NCBI GenBank assembly: GCA_020725385.1
Contig: DYFC01000008.1
Location: 1-52,054, forward strand
Direction: 5' to 3'
Length of the DNA stretch: 52,054 bases
Origin: Nitrospira japonica
Lineage (GTDB): Bacteria; Nitrospirota; Thermodesulfovibrionia; Thermodesulfovibrionales; SM23-35
Positions 1-51,945 of this stretch are shown here, in pieces. Made by a program: the position numbers and the translations under genes. The notes below the pieces were generated by a model, which was not told the origin of the DNA, made no database searches, and saw nothing but the letters and a program-made list of their open reading frames with translations. Every line of letters starts with the position of its first letter. Within the stretch, counting starts at the first letter, position 1.

Positions 1-68
<68 letters not shown>

Positions 69-30831: not shown

Positions 30832-32904
30832 TTACAGTAACGGTACTATCAAAAGTGCGACAATATTGATAACCTTAATCATCGGGTTAATTGCCGGGCC
30901 TGCTGTATCTTTGTACGGGTCGCCGACTGTATCACCTGTAACAGATGCTTTATGTCCGTCGCTACCTTTCTTATGCAATACACCCTTATCGTCTGTAACT
31001 CCATCCTCAAAAGATTTCTTTGCATTATCCCATGCACCGCCGCCACTTGTCATTGCAATTGCCTGGAAAAGACCGGTAACAATGCTTCCGATAAGAACAC
31101 CACCAAGTGCTTTTGGTCCGAGTATGAAACCTACAAGCAAAGGTGCAGCAACAGGAAGTAATGCTGGAATCATCATTTCTTTAATAGCTGATTTTGTAAC
31201 TATATCAACGCATTTACCATACTCGGGCTTCCCTGTTCCTTCCATAATACCTTTAATCTCGCGGAACTGTCTGCGGACCTCAACAACAACACCACCTGCT
31301 GCTTTACCAACTGCAAGCATTAGTCTTGCACCGAAATAGTATGGTATCAGACCTCCTATGAAAAGACCTGCAATAACATATGGGTCTGAAAGATCGAATT
31401 GAACACCACCCATTTTCTTAATTAACTCTCTTGAATATTCGGCGAAAAGAACAAGTGCTGCAAGTGCTGCTGAACCAATTGCATAACCTTTTGTAACTGC
31501 TTTTGTTGTATTACCAACTGCATCGAGAGGGTCGGTAACACCGCGTACATTTTCAGGAAGTTCTGCCATCTCGGCAATACCACCTGCATTATCTGTAATT
31601 GGTCCATATGAGTCAATTGCAACAACAATACCTGTCATTGAAAGCATTGAAACAGCAGCAAGAGCGATTGTAAATAATCCGCCACCTACATTTCCTGCAA
31701 ATCCACCACCAAGTGCGTAAGAGGACATAATTGCTGCAACAATAACAATTGCCGGCAATGCTGTTGCTTCCATACTAACAGCAAGTCCTGCTATAACATT
31801 TGTAGCATGACCCGTAAAACTTGCTCTTGCTATTGTTTTAACAGGTCTGAATGATTTTGATGTATAGTACTCTGTAATCCAGACAATTAAACCGGTAAGA
31901 ACAAGTCCGATAACTGCTGCAAGGAATATACTCATCGGGCTGAATCCACCTGTATCAGAACCAAGCTGTCCCATAAACCACACGGTCACGCCATAGAAAG
32001 CAATTGCAGCAAGAATACCCGCTACCGCCAATGCTTTATATAGTGCGCCCATTATATACTGGCTTGCACCAAGTCTTACAAAATAAGTTCCAATTACTGA
32101 AGCAACAATTGAAACACCACCGAGAAGAATAGGAAATTCAACCCAGGGGCTTTCAGGCCCAAAAATTGATTTTGCAAGAAGCATTGCTGCAACAAGTGTA
32201 ACTGTGTATGTTTCGTAAAGGTCAGCAGCCATTCCAGCGCAGTCACCGACGTTGTCACCAACGTTATCAGCAATAACAGCAGGGTTTCTCGGATCGTCTT
32301 CCGGAATTCCTGCCTCAACTTTACCAACAAGGTCTGCTCCAACGTCAGCAGCTTTTGTATAAATACCACCTGCAATACGTGCAAAAACACTCATTAATGA
32401 GCAGCCAAAACCCAGACCAACGAGAGCGTGGAATGCGCCTTCGCCAACTACTGATTTTGCTATAGCATAGTATCCTGCGATACCAATAATTCCAAGTCCA
32501 ACAACCATAAGGCCAGTAACCGAACCACCTTTGAATGATAGTGTAAGAGCTTGCTGTAAGCCTCTTGAAGCAGCCTGTGTTGTTCTAACATTTGCACGAA
32601 CAGTAACAAACATACCTACAAAACCTGCAAATGCAGAACCACATGTTCCAATAAGAAAACCTATTGCTGTCCAAATACCAAGAGCCGGCACAGCAGCAAT
32701 AATTATAAACAATATAACAGCAACAATCGCTACAGTTTTATACTCACGGGCAAGAAATGCATAAGCACCTTCTTTAACAGCATTTGAAATCTGCTGCATT
32801 CTATCAGAGCCTGCATCTTGCTTCGAAACCCATGCTGCGGTTATCAGGGCATACAAAACTCCCAAAACACCGCAGGCTAAACCAAACAAAATAATAGTAC
32901 TCAT
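30832..32904 (-). CDS. hppA: Membrane-bound H+-translocating pyrophosphatase, K+-independent type
   Basis: [45 protein letters not shown] has Lys at the Ala/Lys determinant, which marks K+-independent enzymes. Confidence 0.95.
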
Positions 32905-32917
32905 TTACTATCCCTCC

Positions 32918-32980
32918 TTAATTAAACTTTCCTTTAGTTAAGTGAAAAGTGAATACTTTAGTAATTTTTTTACCTTTCAC
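32918..32980 (-). other. Candidate 20-aa upstream mini-ORF (MKGKKITKVFTFHLTKGKFN) or SD-pairing RNA element before hppA
   Basis: AAGGAGGGAG directly precedes GTG 32980. The frame is open to TAA 32918, which overlaps the hppA SD (TAAGGAGG). Confidence 0.35.
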
Positions 32981-33010
32981 CTCCCTCCTTTTTTTATAAT
33001 AAAATCCACT

Positions 33011-34261
33011 TTATTTTACCCCTGTGTCTCTTGCTGTAGCCTTTGCAAATACCATAGCGGTCGCCCTGTACAGCATATGTGCCATCTTCGAGAAAGGCGC
33101 ATATGCAAACAGGAAAAAGACCACTACAAGATGGGCAAAATATACAAGATATGAAAGAATAGCTATATTAGCGAGTCTAAACAATTCAGAAAGAATACCT
33201 GTAGCCATTACGGCAAATACTATATATATAAACAACCAATCGTAATATCCGCCTTTACCAGCTTTTGCTTCGTTCTTTTTTCTGTTGTTTATAACCATAA
33301 CTATACCAATCAATAGAGCGAGTGCGCTAACATTCGCAAGCCATTTAAGAGGATCTGTTAAAGGATATGGTGATGGTCCAAGTAAAAATGAAGGCGGAGT
33401 TTTACCCATTGCATGTAAAATTTCATAGCCATACAAATAAAGAACAGCCCATGCTGTTGTAATCGCAAGACCTATAAAACTAAAGAAAACAAGCATATGG
33501 GCAAGTTTTCTATCAATTGTTACATTACATTTTTCGAAGCGTTTATGTGTAAGTATTTCACCTATAGTTTCACTTATTGCCGGCCAGATACTTCCTTGCG
33601 GTTTCAGTCCTGTATATTGAATCATTGCTTTCCAGTATTTTCTAACACCGATAAAAAGTGAAGCAACAGCAAAGAAAAATATTGGTACAAAAACACCATC
33701 AATAAAATATGATGGTAGTAAAGCTGAATAAGCGATTTTACCAGCTTGATTTCTTATTGATTCAAGATTTAGGTGACCGAGCGCAGCAAGAATTATAAGG
33801 AATATTACAGCAGGCACTGCAAGTAAAGGAACCAATCCTCCGGGACTACCTACTAATTTTCCAAGTGCCCGGGGAACTGAATAGTTTTCGATAGACATTT
33901 TTCTGACGACATTAAGAACTTCACCGGGTTTAGCTCCTCTCGGGCAGTAAGCAGTACAGTCGCTACATTGATGACATAACCAGATGTCAGGATTCGCGAT
34001 CAGTTTATCCTTAAGACCCCATTGAGCATTGATCATCTCTTTTCTCGGGAACGGCTTATCCGCTGGTGTAAGATTACAAACTACCGAGCATGTTGCACAT
34101 TGATAACATTTCTTTAGAGATTCTCCACCGCCTTGTATTATAGCATTTACAAACTCCAAGTCAGGAGAGACAATTACTGAGTCATCCTTTGCAGGAACCG
34201 GAGCCTCAGCAACAGCCTCCTCAACTTTTACTTCAGATACCTGAGTTTTTTCTTGTTCCAT
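33011..34261 (-). CDS. qmoC: Quinone-interacting membrane oxidoreductase subunit QmoC
   Basis: HdrC-like CYQCATCSVVC and CHQCSDCTAYCP, followed by a cytochrome b-type membrane domain with candidate heme His (LAHML, FAHLV, KMAHML). Confidence 0.93.
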   Translation of the reverse strand: MEQEKTQVSEVKVEEAVAEAPVPAKDDSVIVSPDLEFVNAIIQGGGESLKKCYQCATCSVVCNLTPADKPFPRKEMINAQWGLKDKLIANPDIWLCHQCSDCTAYCPRGAKPGEVLNVVRKMSIENYSVPRALGKLVGSPGGLVPLLAVPAVIFLIILAALGHLNLESIRNQAGKIAYSALLPSYFIDGVFVPIFFFAVASLFIGVRKYWKAMIQYTGLKPQGSIWPAISETIGEILTHKRFEKCNVTIDRKLAHMLVFFSFIGLAITTAWAVLYLYGYEILHAMGKTPPSFLLGPSPYPLTDPLKWLANVSALALLIGIVMVINNRKKNEAKAGKGGYYDWLFIYIVFAVMATGILSELFRLANIAILSYLVYFAHLVVVFFLFAYAPFSKMAHMLYRATAMVFAKATARDTGVK

Positions 34262-34296: not shown

Positions 34297-36522
34297 TTAG
34301 AATTCCTTAAATGGATTATGTCCTATTTCCTTAACCTTTTCTGCAAATTCATTTATCATATCCGGGAGCTTATGATATTCATCAATCGCCACCTGCAACA
34401 TCTTAACACGGTCAGCCTCAAGTTGCAACTTATTCAAAGTTTCACCAACTTTGCTGAAACGCGTATTGGCAAGTTCACTGCCCTTTACAAAGTGACATTG
34501 ATAATTTTCACCAAACTTGCAACCTAATAATAAAAACCCGTCTATACCTTTTGAAAATGCATCGGCAATCCAGACAAGATGCATACCGCCAAGACATCTT
34601 AATGGAATAAATCGTACACTTGGGTCTATCTGTCTTCTTTGCATTGCAAGTGTATCAAGTGCCGGATATGCATCATTTTCGCATACAAGACATACTATCC
34701 TGAATTCTTCTTCTTCTACTTCAATTGATTTTATTGCCGAGCCGATTATGTCTATGCTGTAATCTTTAAATGACACAATTCTTTCAGGGCACGCACCCAT
34801 ACATGTTCCGCAACGTCTGCATCTGTTGACTTTATAAAATGGAATTCCTTTTTCATCTTCATCGATTGCTCCAAAAGGACATTCTTCAGTACATCTCTTG
34901 CATGCTGTGCATCTGATTAGCTGCGGGTCCGGAAAAGTTAAATCCCATGCCCTCGGGTGCACTGCAACACCTTTTGAGACATGATCAATACATTGTATTG
35001 CTTTAAAAGCAGCACCTGCTGCATCTTCCTGAGAATCAGTCATATTCATAGGTTGTCTAACAGGACCAGCTGCATATACTCCGGTTCTTCTTGTTTCATA
35101 CTGGAAACAGATAAAGTTTGAATCTGCAAATCCCAGAGCACCCGGTAATGACGGTATTTCAGGTCCCTGTCTATATGTAAGATTAAGAATAAATTCGGGT
35201 TTTGGAGTAGAATCAAGATATGCTTTCTTTGCTTCATCACCTTTTGTTGCTGCTTCTGCAAGTCCGTCAAGATATTCCTGCGGTGCGCGTGTCGTAGGAA
35301 CCATTCCTGTTGCAAGAACAACAAGGTCAGCTTCAACTTTAACTTTTTCTCCGAGCAAAGAATTCTCCATCATTACATATAAATTGCCATTCCCTGCATC
35401 AGCAACCCCTGTTACTTCGCCTTTTGTTAACATTACACCGGGATCATTTTGAGCTTCTTTGTAAAATGCTTCAAGCCTTCCGGGTGTTCTCATATCTTTA
35501 TATAAAATCATCGCAATTGCATCTGATTTTTGCCTGACATATCTTGCCTGCTTTAAAGATGTTGCACAGCACATAGATGAACAGTACGGAAGATGATTCG
35601 GGTCCCTGCTTCCTGCACACTGAATGAAAGCAACTTTCTTTGCTTCCCTACCATCAGATGGTCTTGTAATAGCCCCTGATTTTGCAATCTGTTCAAATTC
35701 AATATTGGTGACAACATCTTTATATTTACCATAGCCGAGATGGTCTAATTTAGTTGCATCATAAGGTATCCAGCCTGTAGCTAAAACAATCGCACCTATT
35801 TTTTCCGTAACAGGCCCGTCAGAAGATGCTATAGTAACATCGAATAAACCGGGCTGTCCCTCTGTTTTTTCAACTTTGGCAGATTTAAAAACTTTTATAT
35901 TCGGATGGCTTTCAACTTCTTTTATAATCTTATCTATTTCAGTATCAACAATAACTGGCTCTTTATAATCTCTTGTTGGTATCTTTTTATAAAGTTTATT
36001 AGCGAATCCTCCGAGTTGTGCTTCTTTTTCAACCAGCACAACTTTATAGCCTGCTTTAGCTGATTCAAGGGCTGCTGTCATTCCTGAAATTCCACCGCCT
36101 ATTACAAGTATGTTATTGCTGAGGTTTTCAAGAATATTTGGAGCAGGCAATTCAGATTTCTGTGCTTTGACAGCTCCTATTGTTAAATAATCTTCTGCAA
36201 GAGCCTGTGTATCATCTGTTTTTGGAGGCTGGGTCCACGCAACAAATTCACGTATATTAACTCTTTCCACAAGACATCCTGGGAAATCAAATTCATCATA
36301 TTTTACACGCGGGGAACATGCTGCAATTATTAATGTATTGACTCCCTTTTTAATATCTCCCTTTATCATCTGCAATCCTTCAGGACTGCAAAGAATATCA
36401 TGGGTTTTTATGTCTTCTTCCTTGATTGTTGCTGATTTGGCGGATTTTGCAAGTTTCTCTGTATCAATGGAATCACCGATTCCGCATCCTTTACATATAT
36501 ATACGCCGTATTTTTTTTCCAT
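34297..36522 (-). CDS. qmoB: QmoB (HdrA-like flavoprotein fused to ferredoxin and MvhD-like domains)
   Basis: GGGISG FAD motif, QCAGSRD..YCSSMCC, CTACKRCTEECP/CRRCGTCMGACP, C-terminal CENDAYPA..RCLG..GC..CH. Confidence 0.95.
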   Translation of the reverse strand: MEKKYGVYICKGCGIGDSIDTEKLAKSAKSATIKEEDIKTHDILCSPEGLQMIKGDIKKGVNTLIIAACSPRVKYDEFDFPGCLVERVNIREFVAWTQPPKTDDTQALAEDYLTIGAVKAQKSELPAPNILENLSNNILVIGGGISGMTAALESAKAGYKVVLVEKEAQLGGFANKLYKKIPTRDYKEPVIVDTEIDKIIKEVESHPNIKVFKSAKVEKTEGQPGLFDVTIASSDGPVTEKIGAIVLATGWIPYDATKLDHLGYGKYKDVVTNIEFEQIAKSGAITRPSDGREAKKVAFIQCAGSRDPNHLPYCSSMCCATSLKQARYVRQKSDAIAMILYKDMRTPGRLEAFYKEAQNDPGVMLTKGEVTGVADAGNGNLYVMMENSLLGEKVKVEADLVVLATGMVPTTRAPQEYLDGLAEAATKGDEAKKAYLDSTPKPEFILNLTYRQGPEIPSLPGALGFADSNFICFQYETRRTGVYAAGPVRQPMNMTDSQEDAAGAAFKAIQCIDHVSKGVAVHPRAWDLTFPDPQLIRCTACKRCTEECPFGAIDEDEKGIPFYKVNRCRRCGTCMGACPERIVSFKDYSIDIIGSAIKSIEVEEEEFRIVCLVCENDAYPALDTLAMQRRQIDPSVRFIPLRCLGGMHLVWIADAFSKGIDGFLLLGCKFGENYQCHFVKGSELANTRFSKVGETLNKLQLEADRVKMLQVAIDEYHKLPDMINEFAEKVKEIGHNPFKEF

Positions 36523-36526
36523 AACC

Positions 36527-37786
36527 CTACCTCCTATTCACGCTCTGGATGCATTTTATTACAGCACCTGTTGCATCCTGTACTGATCTCGCAACATCAG
36601 CAGGGCTTCTTAATGTCCCCACTGCGTATATTCCTTTCTTAAGAGCCGCATCATCAACAAGTCCATCTGGTGTATATGAAAGGCTTGTGCCGACATTTGA
36701 GCCTTTTGTAGCAAGGTCCATTCCGGTTGCAAGCACAACCATATCAAACTTAGCTTTAATTTTTCCTCCTCCGAGAGTATCTTCGACATCGACAATCACA
36801 TCATTAGTTCCTGCTTCTTCAGTTATTCCCGCTACCTTGCCTTTGGTAAAAATTACCTTCGGATCATCCTTAATTTTCCAATAGAATCTATTTTCATATA
36901 ATCCTGGCGTTCTTATATCAATGTAAAATATTTGGATTGTTGCTTCAGGATATTGTTCCCTAATATACATTGCATGTTTTAATGTCGCAAGACAACAAAT
37001 ATACGAGCAATACGGAAGGTGATTTTCATCCCTCGAACCAGCACATTGAACAAACGCTATATTTTTTATCTCCTTACCATCTGATGGTCGAACTATTTTG
37101 CCAGCAGTCGGCCCATCTTCAGAAGCAAGTCTTTCCATCATCATATTTGTTATAACATTCTTAACTTTACCGGAGCCCAGTATGTCGAGCTTATTAACAT
37201 CATATGGATTCCAGCCTGTTGCAAGTACTACTGCCCCAACTTTTAGATTAACAGTCTCGGTTTTCATGTTAAAATCTATAGCACTATATTTACAGGCCTC
37301 AAGACACGGTTTTGAACAATCTTTTGGACAAGCTGTAGCATCAATTACATATTGAAAAGGAAATGCCTGCGCATGTGGTAGATATGCTGCTTTTGTTCTG
37401 TCCATCCCAAAATTAAAATCATTGTTTCGATAGGATGGGCATGCTTGCGCGCAAGCATCGCAGCCAACGCATTTGTCATTAACATATCTTGGATTAAGTT
37501 TGACAGTTACATCAAAATTTCCTTCTTCACCCTTAATTTCTGTTACTTCTGCAAGAGTATAAATTGTTACCCGCGGACTATTTTTTATTCTTTTGAATTG
37601 AATTTCCAATCCGCAGTTAGGTGGACAAAGCTTCCAGAAATATTTGTTTATCTGGGCTACCCTGCCACCAAGATAGGGGTTCTTTTCTACGATATAAGCA
37701 TCAAGTCCTGCTTCTGCTGCTTCTATAGCAGCAGTAAGTCCGCTCATACCGCCTCCTACTACAAGAACTTTCTTATTTTCCGCCAT
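36527..37786 (-). CDS. qmoA: QmoA (HdrA-like flavoprotein)
   Basis: GGGMSG, KLCPPNCGLE, CVGCDACAQACP, QCAGSRDENHLPYCSYICC; directly downstream of aprA. Confidence 0.95.
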   Translation of the reverse strand: MAENKKVLVVGGGMSGLTAAIEAAEAGLDAYIVEKNPYLGGRVAQINKYFWKLCPPNCGLEIQFKRIKNSPRVTIYTLAEVTEIKGEEGNFDVTVKLNPRYVNDKCVGCDACAQACPSYRNNDFNFGMDRTKAAYLPHAQAFPFQYVIDATACPKDCSKPCLEACKYSAIDFNMKTETVNLKVGAVVLATGWNPYDVNKLDILGSGKVKNVITNMMMERLASEDGPTAGKIVRPSDGKEIKNIAFVQCAGSRDENHLPYCSYICCLATLKHAMYIREQYPEATIQIFYIDIRTPGLYENRFYWKIKDDPKVIFTKGKVAGITEEAGTNDVIVDVEDTLGGGKIKAKFDMVVLATGMDLATKGSNVGTSLSYTPDGLVDDAALKKGIYAVGTLRSPADVARSVQDATGAVIKCIQSVNRR

Positions 37787-37806
37787 AATAACCCTCCTTC
37801 ATAGGC

Positions 37807-37866
37807 AGTAAGTCACAAAGAGCGGGTTATACGTTAATTAATATAACCATCTCTTTTTAACTTACT
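37807..37866 (-). promoter_or_regulatory. Long imperfect hairpin in the qmoA 5' leader
   Basis: Minus strand arms AGTAAGTTA/TGACTTACT, AAAGAG/CTCTTT and GGTTATAT/GTATAACC; the G-U pairs fit the mRNA strand. Confidence 0.55.
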
Positions 37867-37883
37867 TTCAGTAAACGGCTGCT

Positions 37884-37892
37884 ATTATAGCA
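37884..37892 (-). promoter_or_regulatory. Extended -10 promoter for qmoABC
   Basis: Minus strand TGCTATAAT about 100 nt upstream of the qmoA ATG and downstream of the aprA terminator. Confidence 0.55.
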
Positions 37893-38011
37893 TAAATAGA
37901 AACAAAAAATAAAAATATACTTCATGGAAAAGAAGTAATTTTGAAACAACCCTTTAAAAGGCACTTTGTACACGGGTAATATTTATATATTTTTGAAGCT
38001 TTGTTTTGAAT

Positions 38012-38045
38012 TAAAATGAAAGGGAGGGCTAAAGCCCTCCCTTTC
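38012..38045 (-). terminator. Intrinsic terminator/stabilising hairpin after aprA
   Basis: Perfect 12-bp stem GAAAGGGAGGGC/GCCCTCCCTTTC (38018-38045) with a U-rich tail on the minus strand, 9 nt after the stop. Confidence 0.85.
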
Positions 38046-38054
38046 GAACTCTAA

Positions 38055-40058
38055 TTATGGGAACATCTGGACATATGGTACTTTCTTGAATTCCCATGTA
38101 TTTGTTTCAGCATTATATTTGGAATTTGTAAAGCATTTCCAGTTAGCGTCATCGATCTTGTTGAAGTCGCCTCTGTAATAATAGCCGGGATATCTTGACT
38201 CTTCTCTAAAGAGAATGTGTCTTGCATGTGCTTCAACAGAAAGAATTCTGTGATAGTTCTCAAAGCATCTGAGAAGCTCATGTAGATCTTTTGCTGCCAT
38301 ATGGTTGCAATCCTCTTTAAGAAGTTCGAGTTTCTTGAGTCCTTCTTCGAGCATTGTCTTTGAGGTCATATACCATGTTGCACATCCACCGAAGTATTCA
38401 TCAGCAATTTTCATGAGTCTTAACTGAATTGCTTTTGGTCCGATGTAATAAGGATTGATTTCAGGTGCAGTTGTGTAAGTTTTGTATTTCTCATATATCT
38501 CAAATGGCAGATAGAGTTCGGCTGCTATTTCATCAAGGGTCATCTTAGGATCTGGTTTATAATCTGCGTGGTCAAGAATATAGGCTATTGCAGCTTTTGC
38601 AGCAAGTCTTCCCTCTGCGTGTGAGCCGGATGAGAACTTATGTCCTGATGCGCCGACAACGTCACCAGCCATAAAGAGTCCGGGAACTGTTGACATTCTG
38701 TTGTAACCCCATGTATAGTGCTCGGGTGTTCCAGGTATATCGCCAGGACCACTTACCCAGAAGCCTGCGCAACCGGCATGTGAACCGAGAAGATAAGGCT
38801 CTGTTGGCATAATTTCTGAAGGAACTTTTTCCGGTTCAACGTTGTTAGCTGCCCAGAGAGATGCCTGTCCGATAGCCATGTCAAGGAAGTCTTCCCATGC
38901 TTCTGCTTCAAGGTGTTTTAGTTTCTTTGCACCGGCTTTTTCGCCAAGTTGCTCAATAATTCTCTTTGAGAATTCTGCCATCGCTGTATGGGTATTCATG
39001 AGAATCGGTCCCTTACCATCTTTCATGGCTCTCATCATAAGATGGTTTCTGATTGCTGTACCGAGATTCTTTGCATAATCTCCATATCTTGCAACTGCAT
39101 CATCAAAATATTCTTTATTTGCGCAATAATCTTCTCCATAACTATCTGTTGCTTTTGCTTTGAAGAAGAGGAACCATGCGCCAACAGGACCGTACCCATC
39201 TTTAAATCTTGCTGGTACGAATCTGTTTTCCATAAGTGTCATTTCAGCTCCGGCCTGCATACCGAATGCATAGCCTGAACCTGCGCAGAAAACCGGGTAC
39301 CATGTTCTGCCCATACCTTCACCAACTGATCTCGGTCTGAAGCAGTTAACAGCACCAGCTGTTGCGCAAACCATTGCTTTTGCTTTAAATGAATAGATCT
39401 TGTTTTCTCTTGTGCTGAATCCAACTGCTGCTGCAACATTCTTACCGTTTTTATCCATAACAGCTTTAACGATAAATACTCTCTCGAAATGGTTCTGTGC
39501 CATTCCTGTTGCAGCTCTGTTGGTCTCAAGAGCTTTCTTTGCAGCTTCTGCAACCACGACTTTATATGATTCACCATTGATCATTATCTGCCATTTACCC
39601 GAACGGCATGGTGTTCCACCGTCTTTCAACATCTTATGGCCTTTTTCTTTTGCCTCATGACCATCTATTGAGAATCCGTCTTCACCTTTTTTCCAGATTG
39701 GGAGACCCCATTCTTCAAAATGATGAACCGAGTCGTCAACATGTCTGCCGAGGTCATAAACAAGGTCTTCTCTGATTATGCCCATAAGGTCATTTCTTAC
39801 ATATTTAACATAATCAGCAACTTTGTTCTCGCCTACGTATGTGTTAATAGCTGACAAACCCATTGCAACCGCACCGCTTCTATCTGTTGCTGCTTTGTCA
39901 ACCAATACAACTTTAAGACCTTTTGCATTTGCCCAGCGGCATGCCTCAAATGCTGCTCCGCAGCCTGCCATACCACCGCCCATTATTAAAAGATCGCATT
40001 CAACTTCTGTAACTTCCGGTCTCTTACAGTATGAAAACGTGCAAGTTTCTTTTTCCAT
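38055..40058 (-). CDS. aprA: Dissimilatory adenylylsulfate (APS) reductase alpha subunit
   Basis: GGGMAGCG, RSGAVAMGLSAIN, WQIMINGESYK, RFKDGYGPVGAWF, EPYLLGSH, GHKFSSGSHAEGR, REESRYPG. Confidence 0.97.
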   Translation of the reverse strand: MEKETCTFSYCKRPEVTEVECDLLIMGGGMAGCGAAFEACRWANAKGLKVVLVDKAATDRSGAVAMGLSAINTYVGENKVADYVKYVRNDLMGIIREDLVYDLGRHVDDSVHHFEEWGLPIWKKGEDGFSIDGHEAKEKGHKMLKDGGTPCRSGKWQIMINGESYKVVVAEAAKKALETNRAATGMAQNHFERVFIVKAVMDKNGKNVAAAVGFSTRENKIYSFKAKAMVCATAGAVNCFRPRSVGEGMGRTWYPVFCAGSGYAFGMQAGAEMTLMENRFVPARFKDGYGPVGAWFLFFKAKATDSYGEDYCANKEYFDDAVARYGDYAKNLGTAIRNHLMMRAMKDGKGPILMNTHTAMAEFSKRIIEQLGEKAGAKKLKHLEAEAWEDFLDMAIGQASLWAANNVEPEKVPSEIMPTEPYLLGSHAGCAGFWVSGPGDIPGTPEHYTWGYNRMSTVPGLFMAGDVVGASGHKFSSGSHAEGRLAAKAAIAYILDHADYKPDPKMTLDEIAAELYLPFEIYEKYKTYTTAPEINPYYIGPKAIQLRLMKIADEYFGGCATWYMTSKTMLEEGLKKLELLKEDCNHMAAKDLHELLRCFENYHRILSVEAHARHILFREESRYPGYYYRGDFNKIDDANWKCFTNSKYNAETNTWEFKKVPYVQMFP

Positions 40059-40076
40059 TTATATTCACCTCCTTAA

Positions 40077-40496
40077 TTATTCAGTTCTTGCAGGGCCAGT
40101 GAAAAAGCCCGGCTCTTTTATTTTTGAGAAATCAGGCTCCGGTTTTCCGGCATATGGATCAACTGTGCCTTCAACAGTTGTCCTTATCGGGAATTTGAAT
40201 CTCTTTGTGAGTCCGTTTCTAAATTTAATTGTCCACATAATTGAATCTGAGCTTCTCATTGGAATAGTCTGTGAGCCCAATGGAACAAAGTCTGAATAAC
40301 CTCTTACTTCAATAGCCTGCTGAGGGCAGATTTTTACACAGTTAAAGCACTCCCAGCACTGCTCGGGCTCCTGGTTGTAAGCCTTCATTTTTTCTCTGTC
40401 AAGAATCATAAGGTCATGAGGACAAATATACTGACATGCAGTCTTGTCCCCGGCTTTGCAGCCGTCACATTTTTCAGTAATTACAAAACTTGGCAT
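40077..40496 (-). CDS. aprB: APS reductase beta subunit
   Basis: CDGCKAGDKTACQYICP and QCWECFNCVKICP clusters; IMWTIKFRNG..RFKFPIRTT tail. Confidence 0.97.
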   Translation of the reverse strand: MPSFVITEKCDGCKAGDKTACQYICPHDLMILDREKMKAYNQEPEQCWECFNCVKICPQQAIEVRGYSDFVPLGSQTIPMRSSDSIMWTIKFRNGLTKRFKFPIRTTVEGTVDPYAGKPEPDFSKIKEPGFFTGPARTE

Positions 40497-40577
40497 TTAA
40501 CTACACCTCCTTTTAGAGTTTAATTTGAAAGTGAAAATAAAGCGACAACTTCTAATTAAGCGAGTCTCTTCTTCCAC
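40497..40577 (-). other. Candidate 26-aa upstream mini-ORF (MEEETRLIRSCRFIFTFKLNSKRRCS) or SD-pairing RNA element before aprB
   Basis: AAGGAAAGGAG precedes GTG 40577. The frame is open and in frame with aprB, and its TAA (40499-40497) abuts the aprB ATG. Confidence 0.4.
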
Positions 40578-40597
40578 CTCCTTTCCTTGTTAACTTG

Positions 40598-40631
40598 ATG
40601 TGCGGGTAACAATATAATTGCTACCCGACAT
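40598..40631 (-). other. Intercistronic hairpin between sat and aprB
   Basis: Minus strand ATGT-CGGGTAGCAAT-tat-ATTGTTACCCG-c-ACAT; no U-tract follows it on the mRNA strand. Confidence 0.6.
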
Positions 40632-40676
40632 ACTTTTTGTAACCAAAAAACATTAAACTAAAATTTAAGGTAAAAA

Positions 40677-41897
40677 TTACTTCTTTTCACCTTCAGCATA
40701 TTTATGTAATTTAATCTCTACTTTTTCAGTTAGACCCTGATAGTACTCTTTAAGAATCTCGGCTACCTCGGGACGGCTAAACTTAGATGATACTTCCTCA
40801 CCCTCGGAAAGCATTTTCCTGAGTTTTGTTCCGCTGAGAAGAACTCTATCGTCTTTTCCATGCGGGCATGTTCTCATTGATGCCATACCATCGCATTTAT
40901 TGCAATAGAATGTCCAGTCTATCTTTAATGGTTTTGTTTCAAGAGAACCTTCTGGAATCTCATCAAATATTTTCTGTGCATCGAAAGGACCATAGTATTC
41001 ACCAACACCTGCATGGTCACGTCCGATAATCATATAATAACAACCATAATTCTGCCTAAAGGTTGCATGTAATAGTGCTTCTCTTGGTCCGGCATATCTC
41101 ATATCAAGAGGATAACCAGCCTGAATGCATGTATTTTTGACAAAATATAATTCAACAAGCTTGTCTATTGCTCTAACTCTAACTTCTGCAGGTATATCAC
41201 CGGGCTTTAATTTTCCGAGCAATTGATGGATAAGAACACCGTCACAAATTTCAATAGCAATTTTTGCGAGGAATTCATGTGAACGGTGCATCGGGTTTCT
41301 TAATTGTAATGCAGCAACTGTATTCCAGCCTTTTTCTTGAAACATTTTTCTTGTTTCAGCAGGTGTAAGGAATAGTCCAGGATATTGTGCGGGAAATCCT
41401 CCCTGGCTCAAAACTTTTACAGGACCGGCAAGGTTTACTTCTGCCTGCTCCATAACCATCTTAACACCCGGATGCTCCATATCGGTAGTTTTATAAATAT
41501 TCTTGCATTCAAAATCTTTGTCAATGGTGTACTTTTCGGTCACTTTCATAGTAGCCATAAATTTACTATACTCATCGGACCAGAGTGCGATTTCATCTCC
41601 TATCTTAATTCCATCGGCATCTGATTTTGAAGCTGATAATGTTATAGGAATCGGCCAGAATGTTCCATCTGCCATTTTAAAATCAGCGCAAACACCTTTC
41701 CAGTCAGCCTCTGTCATGAAACCTGTAAGTGGTGTAAAACCACCGATTCCCATCATAATGAGGTCACCAGCTTCACGGGAAGTTATGCTGATTTTTTTCA
41801 GTTTTTCAGCTTTTTTCTTCTCCTCTTCCAATTCCGCCCCGGTTAGAAGAAGGGGTTTGAGTTTTTTCTCTTTTCCATGTGGATTTGGTAATGCCAT
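40677..41897 (-). CDS. sat: Sulfate adenylyltransferase (ATP sulfurylase)
   Basis: [29 protein letters not shown], zinc ligands CNKC..CPH, LSGTKLR. Confidence 0.97.
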
Positions 41898-41950: not shown

Positions 41951-42598
41951 TTAGCTAAGACCTAAAAGCTCACAGACCTTCTTAAATATATCATCAATAT
42001 TCCCTGTACCCTGAACAGTTTTCAAAATACCTTTTTTGCCATAGTAATCAATTAAAGGTGCTGTTTGGGCGTTATATACATCCAGTCTCTTTTTAATTGT
42101 TTCCTCTTTGTCATCATCTCTCTGGAAGAGTTCGCCGTTGCATTTGTCGCAGACACCTTCTTTTGCAGGTGGCTTGAAATAAATATTGTACATTTGTCCG
42201 CACGATTTGCATGTCCTTCTTCCTGTAAGTCTTTTCATAAGGTCATCGAATGGAACATCTACGCTGAGAGCAGCTGTAAGTGACATATTCAAAGAGGCGA
42301 GCATTTTGTCGAGTGCTTCTGCCTGAGCAGTATTTCTCGGGAATCCGTCCAGAATATATCCCTTTTTGCAGTCATCCTGTTTGAGTCTTTCTTCAACCAT
42401 TCCAAGAACAACACTATCAGGAACGAGTTCACCTTTGTCCATGTAGGATTTTGCTTCTTTGCCTAAAGCAGTTCCAGCTGCTACCGCTGCTCTGAGCAGG
42501 TCGCCTGTTGATATTTGAGGGATGCTATACTTCTCGATAAGTTTCTTCGCCTGCGTCCCTTTTCCAGCTCCTGGTGCACCAAGCAATACTAATCTCAT
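41951..42598 (-). CDS. adk: Adenylate kinase (Zn-lid type)
   Basis: GAPGAGKGTQ, STGDLLR, LDGFPR, lid CKSC..CDKC, QRDDD. Confidence 0.97.
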   Translation of the reverse strand: MRLVLLGAPGAGKGTQAKKLIEKYSIPQISTGDLLRAAVAAGTALGKEAKSYMDKGELVPDSVVLGMVEERLKQDDCKKGYILDGFPRNTAQAEALDKMLASLNMSLTAALSVDVPFDDLMKRLTGRRTCKSCGQMYNIYFKPPAKEGVCDKCNGELFQRDDDKEETIKKRLDVYNAQTAPLIDYYGKKGILKTVQGTGNIDDIFKKVCELLGLS

Positions 42599-51868: not shown

Positions 51869-51945
51869 GGCGGCGTAGCTCAGTCGGTTAGAGCATGCGG
51901 CTCATATCCGCAGTGTCCGGGGTTCAAATCCCTGCACCGCCACCA
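51869..51945 (+). tRNA. tRNA-Met (CAT), elongator type
   Basis: 77-nt cloverleaf GGCGGCG..TAGCTCAG; anticodon arm TGCGG-CTCATAT-CCGCA; T loop TTCAAAT; encoded CCA. G1-C72 is paired and the three consecutive G-C anticodon-stem pairs of initiators are absent. Confidence 0.93.

Follow-up and report, generated by a model that had tools for sequence, protein, structure and literature searches.

An orphan Shine-Dalgarno box conserved in the aprBA leader, a proposed member of the STAB-SD kind

AprBA is a core enzyme of dissimilatory sulfate reduction. In the stretch of 52,054 nucleotides that we analyzed (the window, taken at its full length), the leader of its genes carries a purine-rich box that is a Shine-Dalgarno (SD) motif to judge by its sequence and an orphan to judge by its context. 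The pattern of substitutions in relatives indicates that the box is real and under selection, its flanks having diverged. The best reading makes it an orphan SD of the STAB-SD kind, lying outside Bacillota and conserved with a core energy-metabolism operon. We give an even chance to the reading in which a ribosome docked on the box would protect, and perhaps also feed, the aprBA mRNA; ribosome binding, nearness to the mature 5′ end and an effect on mRNA stability are the parts of it that we infer. A post-transcriptional role, as the initial annotation had supposed, is the best reading of a start-less, conserved SD-like box. A literature search, judged on titles and abstract openings, found no description of this element and no paper on aprBA leaders.

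Every gene of the sat-aprBA-qmo-hppA locus lies on the minus strand. The features had been described accurately in the initial annotation, except that the strand was left unstated; they are, from higher to lower coordinates:

41951-42598, minus strand: adk (Pfam)
40677-41897, minus strand: sat, ATP sulfurylase, the gene upstream of aprB (Pfam PF01747, E = 6.9e-88)
40497-40676, minus strand: sat-aprB spacer, 180 nt
40598-40631, minus strand: stem-loop past the sat stop, with about 15 pairs and without a U tract; its end is 12 nt short of the orphan SD
40573-40585, minus strand: orphan SD element GAAAGGAGGTG(GA), the conserved core of the finding, with GAAAGGAGGTG at 40575-40585
40497-40577, minus strand: 26-codon GTG frame VEEETRLIRSCRFIFTFKLNSKRRCS, judged a chance open frame (GTG at 40575-40577, TAA at 40497-40499)
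40527-40537, minus strand: U-rich stretch TTTTCACTTTC, able to pair with the orphan SD through G-U pairs (a helix drawn by RNAfold; a candidate only)
40504-40513, minus strand: functional SD of aprB, AAAGGAGGTG, 9 nt before the ATG
40077-40496, minus strand: aprB, APS reductase beta subunit (Pfam PF12139, E = 3.9e-29)
38055-40058, minus strand: aprA, APS reductase alpha subunit (Pfam FAD_binding_2 and Succ_DH_flav_C)
38018-38045, minus strand: GC-rich hairpin after aprA, GAAAGGGAGGGC-TTTA-GCCCTCCCTTTC, then ATTTTAATT
36527-37786 and 34297-36522, minus strand: two Qmo-like flavoproteins (Pfam)
33011-34261, minus strand: Fe-S (QmoC-like) protein gene, upstream of hppA (Pfam)
32978-32988, minus strand: GGAGGGAGGTG in the leader of hppA, a second SD-like element that is an orphan, about 75-85 nt upstream of the ATG
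30832-32904, minus strand: hppA (PF03030, E = 6e-261)

Along the minus strand the sat-aprB spacer runs through a small stem-loop, the long stem-loop (40598-40631), GAAAGGAGGTG, a 61-nt AT-rich stretch, AAAGGAGGTG and the aprB ATG. Only 18 nt separate aprB from aprA, which has a strong SD of its own. The two strong boxes of the spacer, initially placed about 72 nt apart, are real and lie 71 nt apart: the 52 kb window has two copies of the 10-mer AAAGGAGGTG and no more, one at 40504-40513 and the other at 40575-40584 (minus strand). This paired occurrence is beyond chance, with two copies against 0.18 expected and two or more in none of 100 shuffles. When the 25 nt before each of 47 gene starts were compared, aprB and aprA proved to have the two strongest true SDs of the window, and the 11-mer GAAAGGAGGTG of the upstream box was the longest SD-type run in the window; the longest run in common with it is 10 nt for aprB, 9 nt for one further gene and at most 7 nt for the other 45. 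Intergenic ARGGRGG sites that serve no gene number three in the whole window, namely those in the aprB leader, in the hppA leader and in the rising arm of the aprA hairpin.

Conservation bears out the upstream box as a genuine second SD-like module. The homologues of aprB number 2981, and the relatives compared here are 80 loci encoding an AprB of 72-96% identity, 79 of which have the zone from −140 to −60 relative to the aprB ATG. In that zone RGGRGGTG is present in 48 of the 79 relatives, at 69-131 nt from the ATG (median 91, interquartile range 84-98). Its density there is 7.5 per kb versus 0.058 per kb elsewhere on the coding strand, an enrichment of about 130-fold; the opposite strand of the same zone holds a single match, no locus has more than one box, and most of the other 34 matches on the coding strand belong to genuine SDs, whether of aprB, of aprA or of other genes. 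When 7-mers between −160 and −30 were counted in 78 loci with no pattern given, GGAGGTG (26 loci) and GGGGGTG (22 loci) again came out on top. In an alignment of the 14 closest leaders, the two SD boxes are the sole conserved parts. The strict motif is missing in 31 of the 79 relatives, so the orphan SD is dispensable. Among these 31, L067 and L068 have degenerate copies of the box that score above the 95th percentile of the coding null; the box-less relatives include two Thermodesulfovibrio sp. loci, Magnetobacterium-like rows and a clade, at least 10 loci strong, whose spacer is about 60 nt. L014, labelled Thermodesulfovibrio yellowstonii, does have the box, at −99. A FastTree phylogeny of AprB and AprA, comprising 59 rows after 21 loci with no complete gene pair were left out, has the box in 36 rows, scattered in a way that requires at least 8-10 changes; the rows with the box are labelled Nitrospirota, Actinomycetota and Thermodesulfobacteriota.

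The pattern of the box is that of a sequence facing the anti-SD. Its consensus is GARAGGRGGTG (11 nt; GARAGGRGGUG in RNA), and the logo of 49 rows reads G46 A44 R A42 G G R G G T G N A40. At the positions outside the search pattern (G46/A3, A44/G5 and A30/G19), pyrimidines fill none of the 147 cells. Indeed, every change in the box is an exchange between A and G, at sites that would face U in the 16S anti-SD, and A-U and G-U both pair opposite U. The flanks stay below 0.35 bit at 27 of the 28 listed positions, the sole exception being an A two bases past the box (1.09 bit, 40 of 49 rows). The core of the orphan box is GGGGG in 23 of the 48 relatives, versus none of the 79 true aprB SDs, of which 78 have GGAGG. 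The GGGGG core points to constraints that a working SD does not share; a duplex of 11 nt would tolerate a G-U at its centre. The box matches the anti-SD stretches listed in Table 1 of PMC10783764, ACCUCCUUU for Thermodesulfovibrionia and UCACCUCCUU for Thermoleophilia; the host's own 16S tail lies outside the window. Judged on these published stretches, GAAAGGAGGTG has the extended complementarity to the 16S 3′ end that marks a STAB-SD. Its place in a leader where, by sequence, it does not direct initiation agrees with this as well: an ATG, GTG or TTG 4-13 nt past the core is absent from the window and from 46 of the 48 relatives, two having one.

A similar module before hppA, also proposed initially, was found again in the window. 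The element GGAGGGAGGTG (32978-32988, minus strand) begins about 22 nt past the stop of the Fe-S (QmoC-like) gene and serves no gene, hppA having its own SD. A GTG frame of 20 codons starts from it, and TTTTCACTT comes after it, as after the box in the aprB leader; the window has three copies of TTTTCACTT versus 1.8 expected, and 27 of 100 shuffles have at least three, which is not significant.

The STAB-SD of Bacillus thuringiensis cry3A, in the account given in PMC4113751 (where Agaisse & Lereclus 1996 and Mathy et al. 2007 are cited as sources), is an SD-like sequence of the 5′ UTR that pairs with 16S rRNA and does not direct initiation; the 30S subunit held there blocks RNase J1, which trims a long primary transcript to a stable one. 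The aprBA leader resembles it in the extended complementarity to the 16S 3′ end, in having no start codon after the box and in a 3′ stem-loop that closes the message. It differs in its hosts, which are Nitrospirota and rows labelled Actinomycetota and Thermodesulfobacteriota, not Bacillota, and in that half of its copies read GGGGG, not GGAGG. Furthermore, cry3A rests on experiment, whereas the present case is one of deep conservation with one gene family, seen in sequence alone. On the model of STAB-SD, a 30S subunit or ribosome would dock on GARAGGRGGUG in the aprBA leader and not initiate, and would shield the downstream message from decay starting at its 5′ end. The strong hairpin after aprA would close the aprBA segment at the 3′ end, and the segment would then accumulate above its neighbours sat and qmo. 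The order of the parts, with a stem-loop after sat, the orphan SD, the strong SDs of aprB and aprA and the hairpin after aprA, fits such a stable aprBA module. We propose that this hairpin may be a terminator or 3′ stabiliser closing the aprBA unit; of the 59 rows in which aprA is complete, nearly all have a comparable one within the first 90 nt past this gene.

Several observations count against a stabiliser. The window has no RNase J gene, and for Nitrospirae passages of the review PMC3071783 name RNase E/G-type proteins only. No convincing promoter or processing site lies near the element: promoter scans of the window spacer and of L024, L016 and L003, which have no sat directly upstream, gave counts not above those of shuffles, with no site between the box and aprB and none within about 150 nt upstream of the box. 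The predicted accessibility of the box is only moderate (unpaired probability 0.36 in the window and 0.485 on average), and the relatives lacking the strict motif (31/79) or having a GGGGG core (23/48) also weigh against it. As to the stem-loop before the box, that it is a conserved part of the arrangement is a visual impression. The 70 nt before the box have a minimum free energy of −17.9 kcal/mol, versus −17.9 kcal/mol in coding controls that are more GC-rich, and energies of −20 kcal/mol or lower occur in 20 of 48 leaders versus 97 of 288 of these more GC-rich controls, which is not significant. Many relatives have equally long stems of unrelated sequence at the same place before the box.

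If the box does stabilise the message, a start-less ribosome-docking element would have been kept before aprBA while the surrounding leader diverged. The STAB-SD principle, described mainly in Bacillus so far, would then extend to Nitrospirota and other anaerobes, and there would be a concrete explanation for an aprBA output uncoupled from those of sat and qmo.

An alternative that we regard as unlikely, though worth keeping in view, is that the orphan SD is a ribosome standby site or translational enhancer that hands a 30S subunit to the true aprB SD about 70 nt downstream, raising translation and not mRNA stability; the two effects may coexist. The conservation and pattern of the box speak for such a site as they do for a stabiliser, and sequence cannot separate the two. 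The fairly narrow distance of the box to the ATG (interquartile range 84-98 nt) would suit a hand-over, and the rank of aprB and aprA as the strongest true SDs in the window would suit selection for maximal ribosome loading. However, direct hand-over would have to bridge a long gap, 70-130 nt of variable sequence with local hairpins, and in the precedent described in PMC4113751 the effect of a start-less extended SD in a leader is stabilisation.

A more far-reaching idea, which we put forward as speculation and consider improbable, is that the box is a dedicated ancient cis-element of dissimilatory sulfate-activation genes, kept with aprBA in lineages bearing three phylum labels and recurring before hppA, part of a shared post-transcriptional programme that would set the stoichiometry of Sat, AprBA, Qmo and pyrophosphatase, perhaps with a CU-rich RNA or protein partner. 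Such a partner is hinted at because the GGGGG variant never occurs in true aprB SDs. In a related and slightly more doubtful explanation, the ribosome would not be what reads the box; a small RNA whose seed is CU-rich, a protein that binds RNA or a DNA-binding regulator would do so, at a control site shared by aprBA and hppA. The GGGGG core of the orphans (23/48 versus 0/79 true aprB SDs) and the like element before hppA are in agreement with this, as is the conserved A two bases past the box (40/49), which the anti-SD stretches in Table 1 of PMC10783764 leave unexplained. Nevertheless, a box that matches the anti-SD over 11 nt and varies only between A and G opposite U is most simply accounted for by pairing with 16S rRNA; dimeric DNA-binding regulators do not typically recognise one asymmetric run of purines, and the box is not followed by any fixed −10-like signal. 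In 23 of the 48 relatives the 8-mer is AGGGGGTG, which lacks a GGA site of the CsrA type. Two-site leaders of the CsrA/RsmA type have a GGA motif upstream and a GGA within the SD. The aprB leader is like them in having two purine-rich, GGA-containing sites, one over the true SD and one tens of nucleotides upstream, and unlike them in that its conserved positions match the anti-SD over 11 nt and not an A(N)GGA loop. A CsrA-type two-site leader was rejected, the upstream GGA core being wanting wherever AGGGGGTG stands.

Still less probable is an SD/anti-SD switch, in which pairing of the orphan SD with the downstream U-rich stretch would be one of several alternative folds that govern how accessible the ribosome-binding site of aprB is. 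That the upstream box can pair with a downstream stretch through G-U pairs, as initially noted, is correct: GGAGGUGGAAG and UUUUCACUUUC (40527-40537) form 11 pairs, 4 of them G-U, in a helix that is part of the minimum-energy structure given by RNAfold. Taken whole, the 211-nt spacer has a more stable fold than its shuffles (z = −4.08), TTTTCACTT likewise follows the orphan SD of the hppA leader, and in L076 and L079 the box is paired more than in 93% of their own shuffles. However, part of the folding energy of the spacer comes from the stem-loop after sat, and the pairing does not exceed chance across leaders. Sequestration was gauged in 49 leaders by the partition-function probability that the 11-nt box is unpaired, against 30 controls per leader in which the stretch from the box to the true SD had been dinucleotide-shuffled, at two 5′ boundaries. 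In the window the box has an unpaired probability of 0.36 versus 0.43 in shuffles, 27% of which pair it at least as much. Over the 49 leaders there was no shift, the mean being 0.485 versus 0.467 for shuffles with the 5′ end just before the box and 0.399 versus 0.386 with 60 nt more upstream. With the shorter 5′ end, 3 of 49 leaders fall in the most-paired tenth relative to their own shuffles and 7 in the least-paired; with the longer, the numbers are 6 and 9.

RNAalifold found 0 pairs in the 14 closest leaders, which are divergent and poorly alignable, such that a weak structure could escape. A permissive Rfam scan of 40000-41000 gave no relevant family, the best hit having E = 1.3 and all lying far below gathering scores, and a scan of the whole window at gathering scores matched only a tRNA and the first 68 nt of a 16S gene. 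These two lie at the edges of the window: positions 1-68 (minus strand) contain no more of a 16S rRNA gene than its 5′ end (model positions 1-68), and a tRNA gene stands near the other end of the window (51869-51942, plus strand). The conserved SD/anti-SD switch of the initial annotation is thus not upheld, and a structured RNA switch or riboswitch found no support, on three grounds: pairing at shuffle level, no consensus structure in 14 leaders and no family match. Any U-rich leader will offer G-U partners to a purine box, and in the best reading the G-U pairing with the U-rich stretch is a by-product of a purine-rich box in an AT-rich leader.

The reading that survives least well, and to which we give hardly any credence, is a translated leader peptide that starts at the GTG of the box and is coupled to aprB or senses cysteine or sulfur. 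The frame itself is exactly as had been described: its GTG lies in the upstream box, it has 26 codons with two Cys and five Arg (VEEETRLIRSCRFIFTFKLNSKRRCS), it is in phase with aprB, and its TAA touches the aprB ATG. The hppA leader likewise has a GTG frame, of 20 codons, opening from its box. But the G that begins the GTG is the last G of GGAGG, and the SD-to-start spacing is therefore zero, versus 9 nt for the true aprB SD; with the GTG inside the box at zero spacing, the box cannot serve it at a working distance. A GTG frame of at least 26 codons also arises in 11.7% of 300 shuffled leaders. In the 48 relatives the embedded frame has 1-39 codons, with one reading through into aprB; it has at most 10 codons in 22, is in phase with aprB in 18, near the one-third expected by chance, ends exactly at the aprB ATG in none and is longer than 90% of its own shuffles in only 3. 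The closest relative, L001 (95% identity in AprB and AprA), has a small length difference and meets a stop after 8 codons (VEEETRLV), before either Cys codon, and L002 and L031 have unrelated peptides in their embedded frames.

Leader-peptide attenuators and translational coupling ORFs include the trp, erm and cat leaders. The likeness of the aprB leader to these is a short leader frame that ends next to the downstream start codon; the differences are the want of a working SD-to-start spacing, the unconserved frame, length and residues, and the absence of alternative terminator and antiterminator helices. A leader peptide or attenuator was accordingly rejected, its start having no SD at a working distance and its frame, length and regulatory codons not being conserved. 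Of the second SD, the frame and the pairing, which the initial annotation had singled out for comparison with relatives, the second SD is conserved (48/79) and the other two are not (18/48 in phase; no gain over shuffles). We judge the 26-codon frame, from its sequence, to be probably a chance open frame, a by-product of a purine-rich box in an AT-rich leader. For annotation this carries a warning, as strong SD boxes in leaders can yield plausible but spurious mini-ORFs.

Some further features of these loci were noted. In most loci, whether or not the orphan SD is present, the hairpin after aprA is alike in sequence too (GGGAGGG...CCCTCCC type), its rising arm being SD-like and its falling arm anti-SD-like. 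Between aprA and the first qmo-like gene lies an AT-rich spacer of 268 nt (37787-38054, minus strand) with a TATAAT hexamer at about 37885-37890, which suggests a promoter of its own for qmo. A Nitrospirota clade of higher GC content, which has no orphan SD and whose sat-aprB spacer is about 60 nt long (L021-L023, L026, L030, L032 and L033, with L037, L039, L045-L047, L051 and L054 as further members), keeps a small conserved hairpin, GACTGC-loop-GCAGTT, just before the aprB SD, at about −45 to −25. Some relatives have a gene for a DUF6955 protein of 101 residues between sat and aprB, where the window has none; it lies at 2607-2912 in L008 and is also found upstream of aprB in L012, L013, L015, L025, L027, L036, L061 and L077. 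The orphan SD is missing where the spacer to aprB is shorter than 50 nt, and in L008 the orphan SD begins about 4-5 nt past the stop of the DUF6955 gene.
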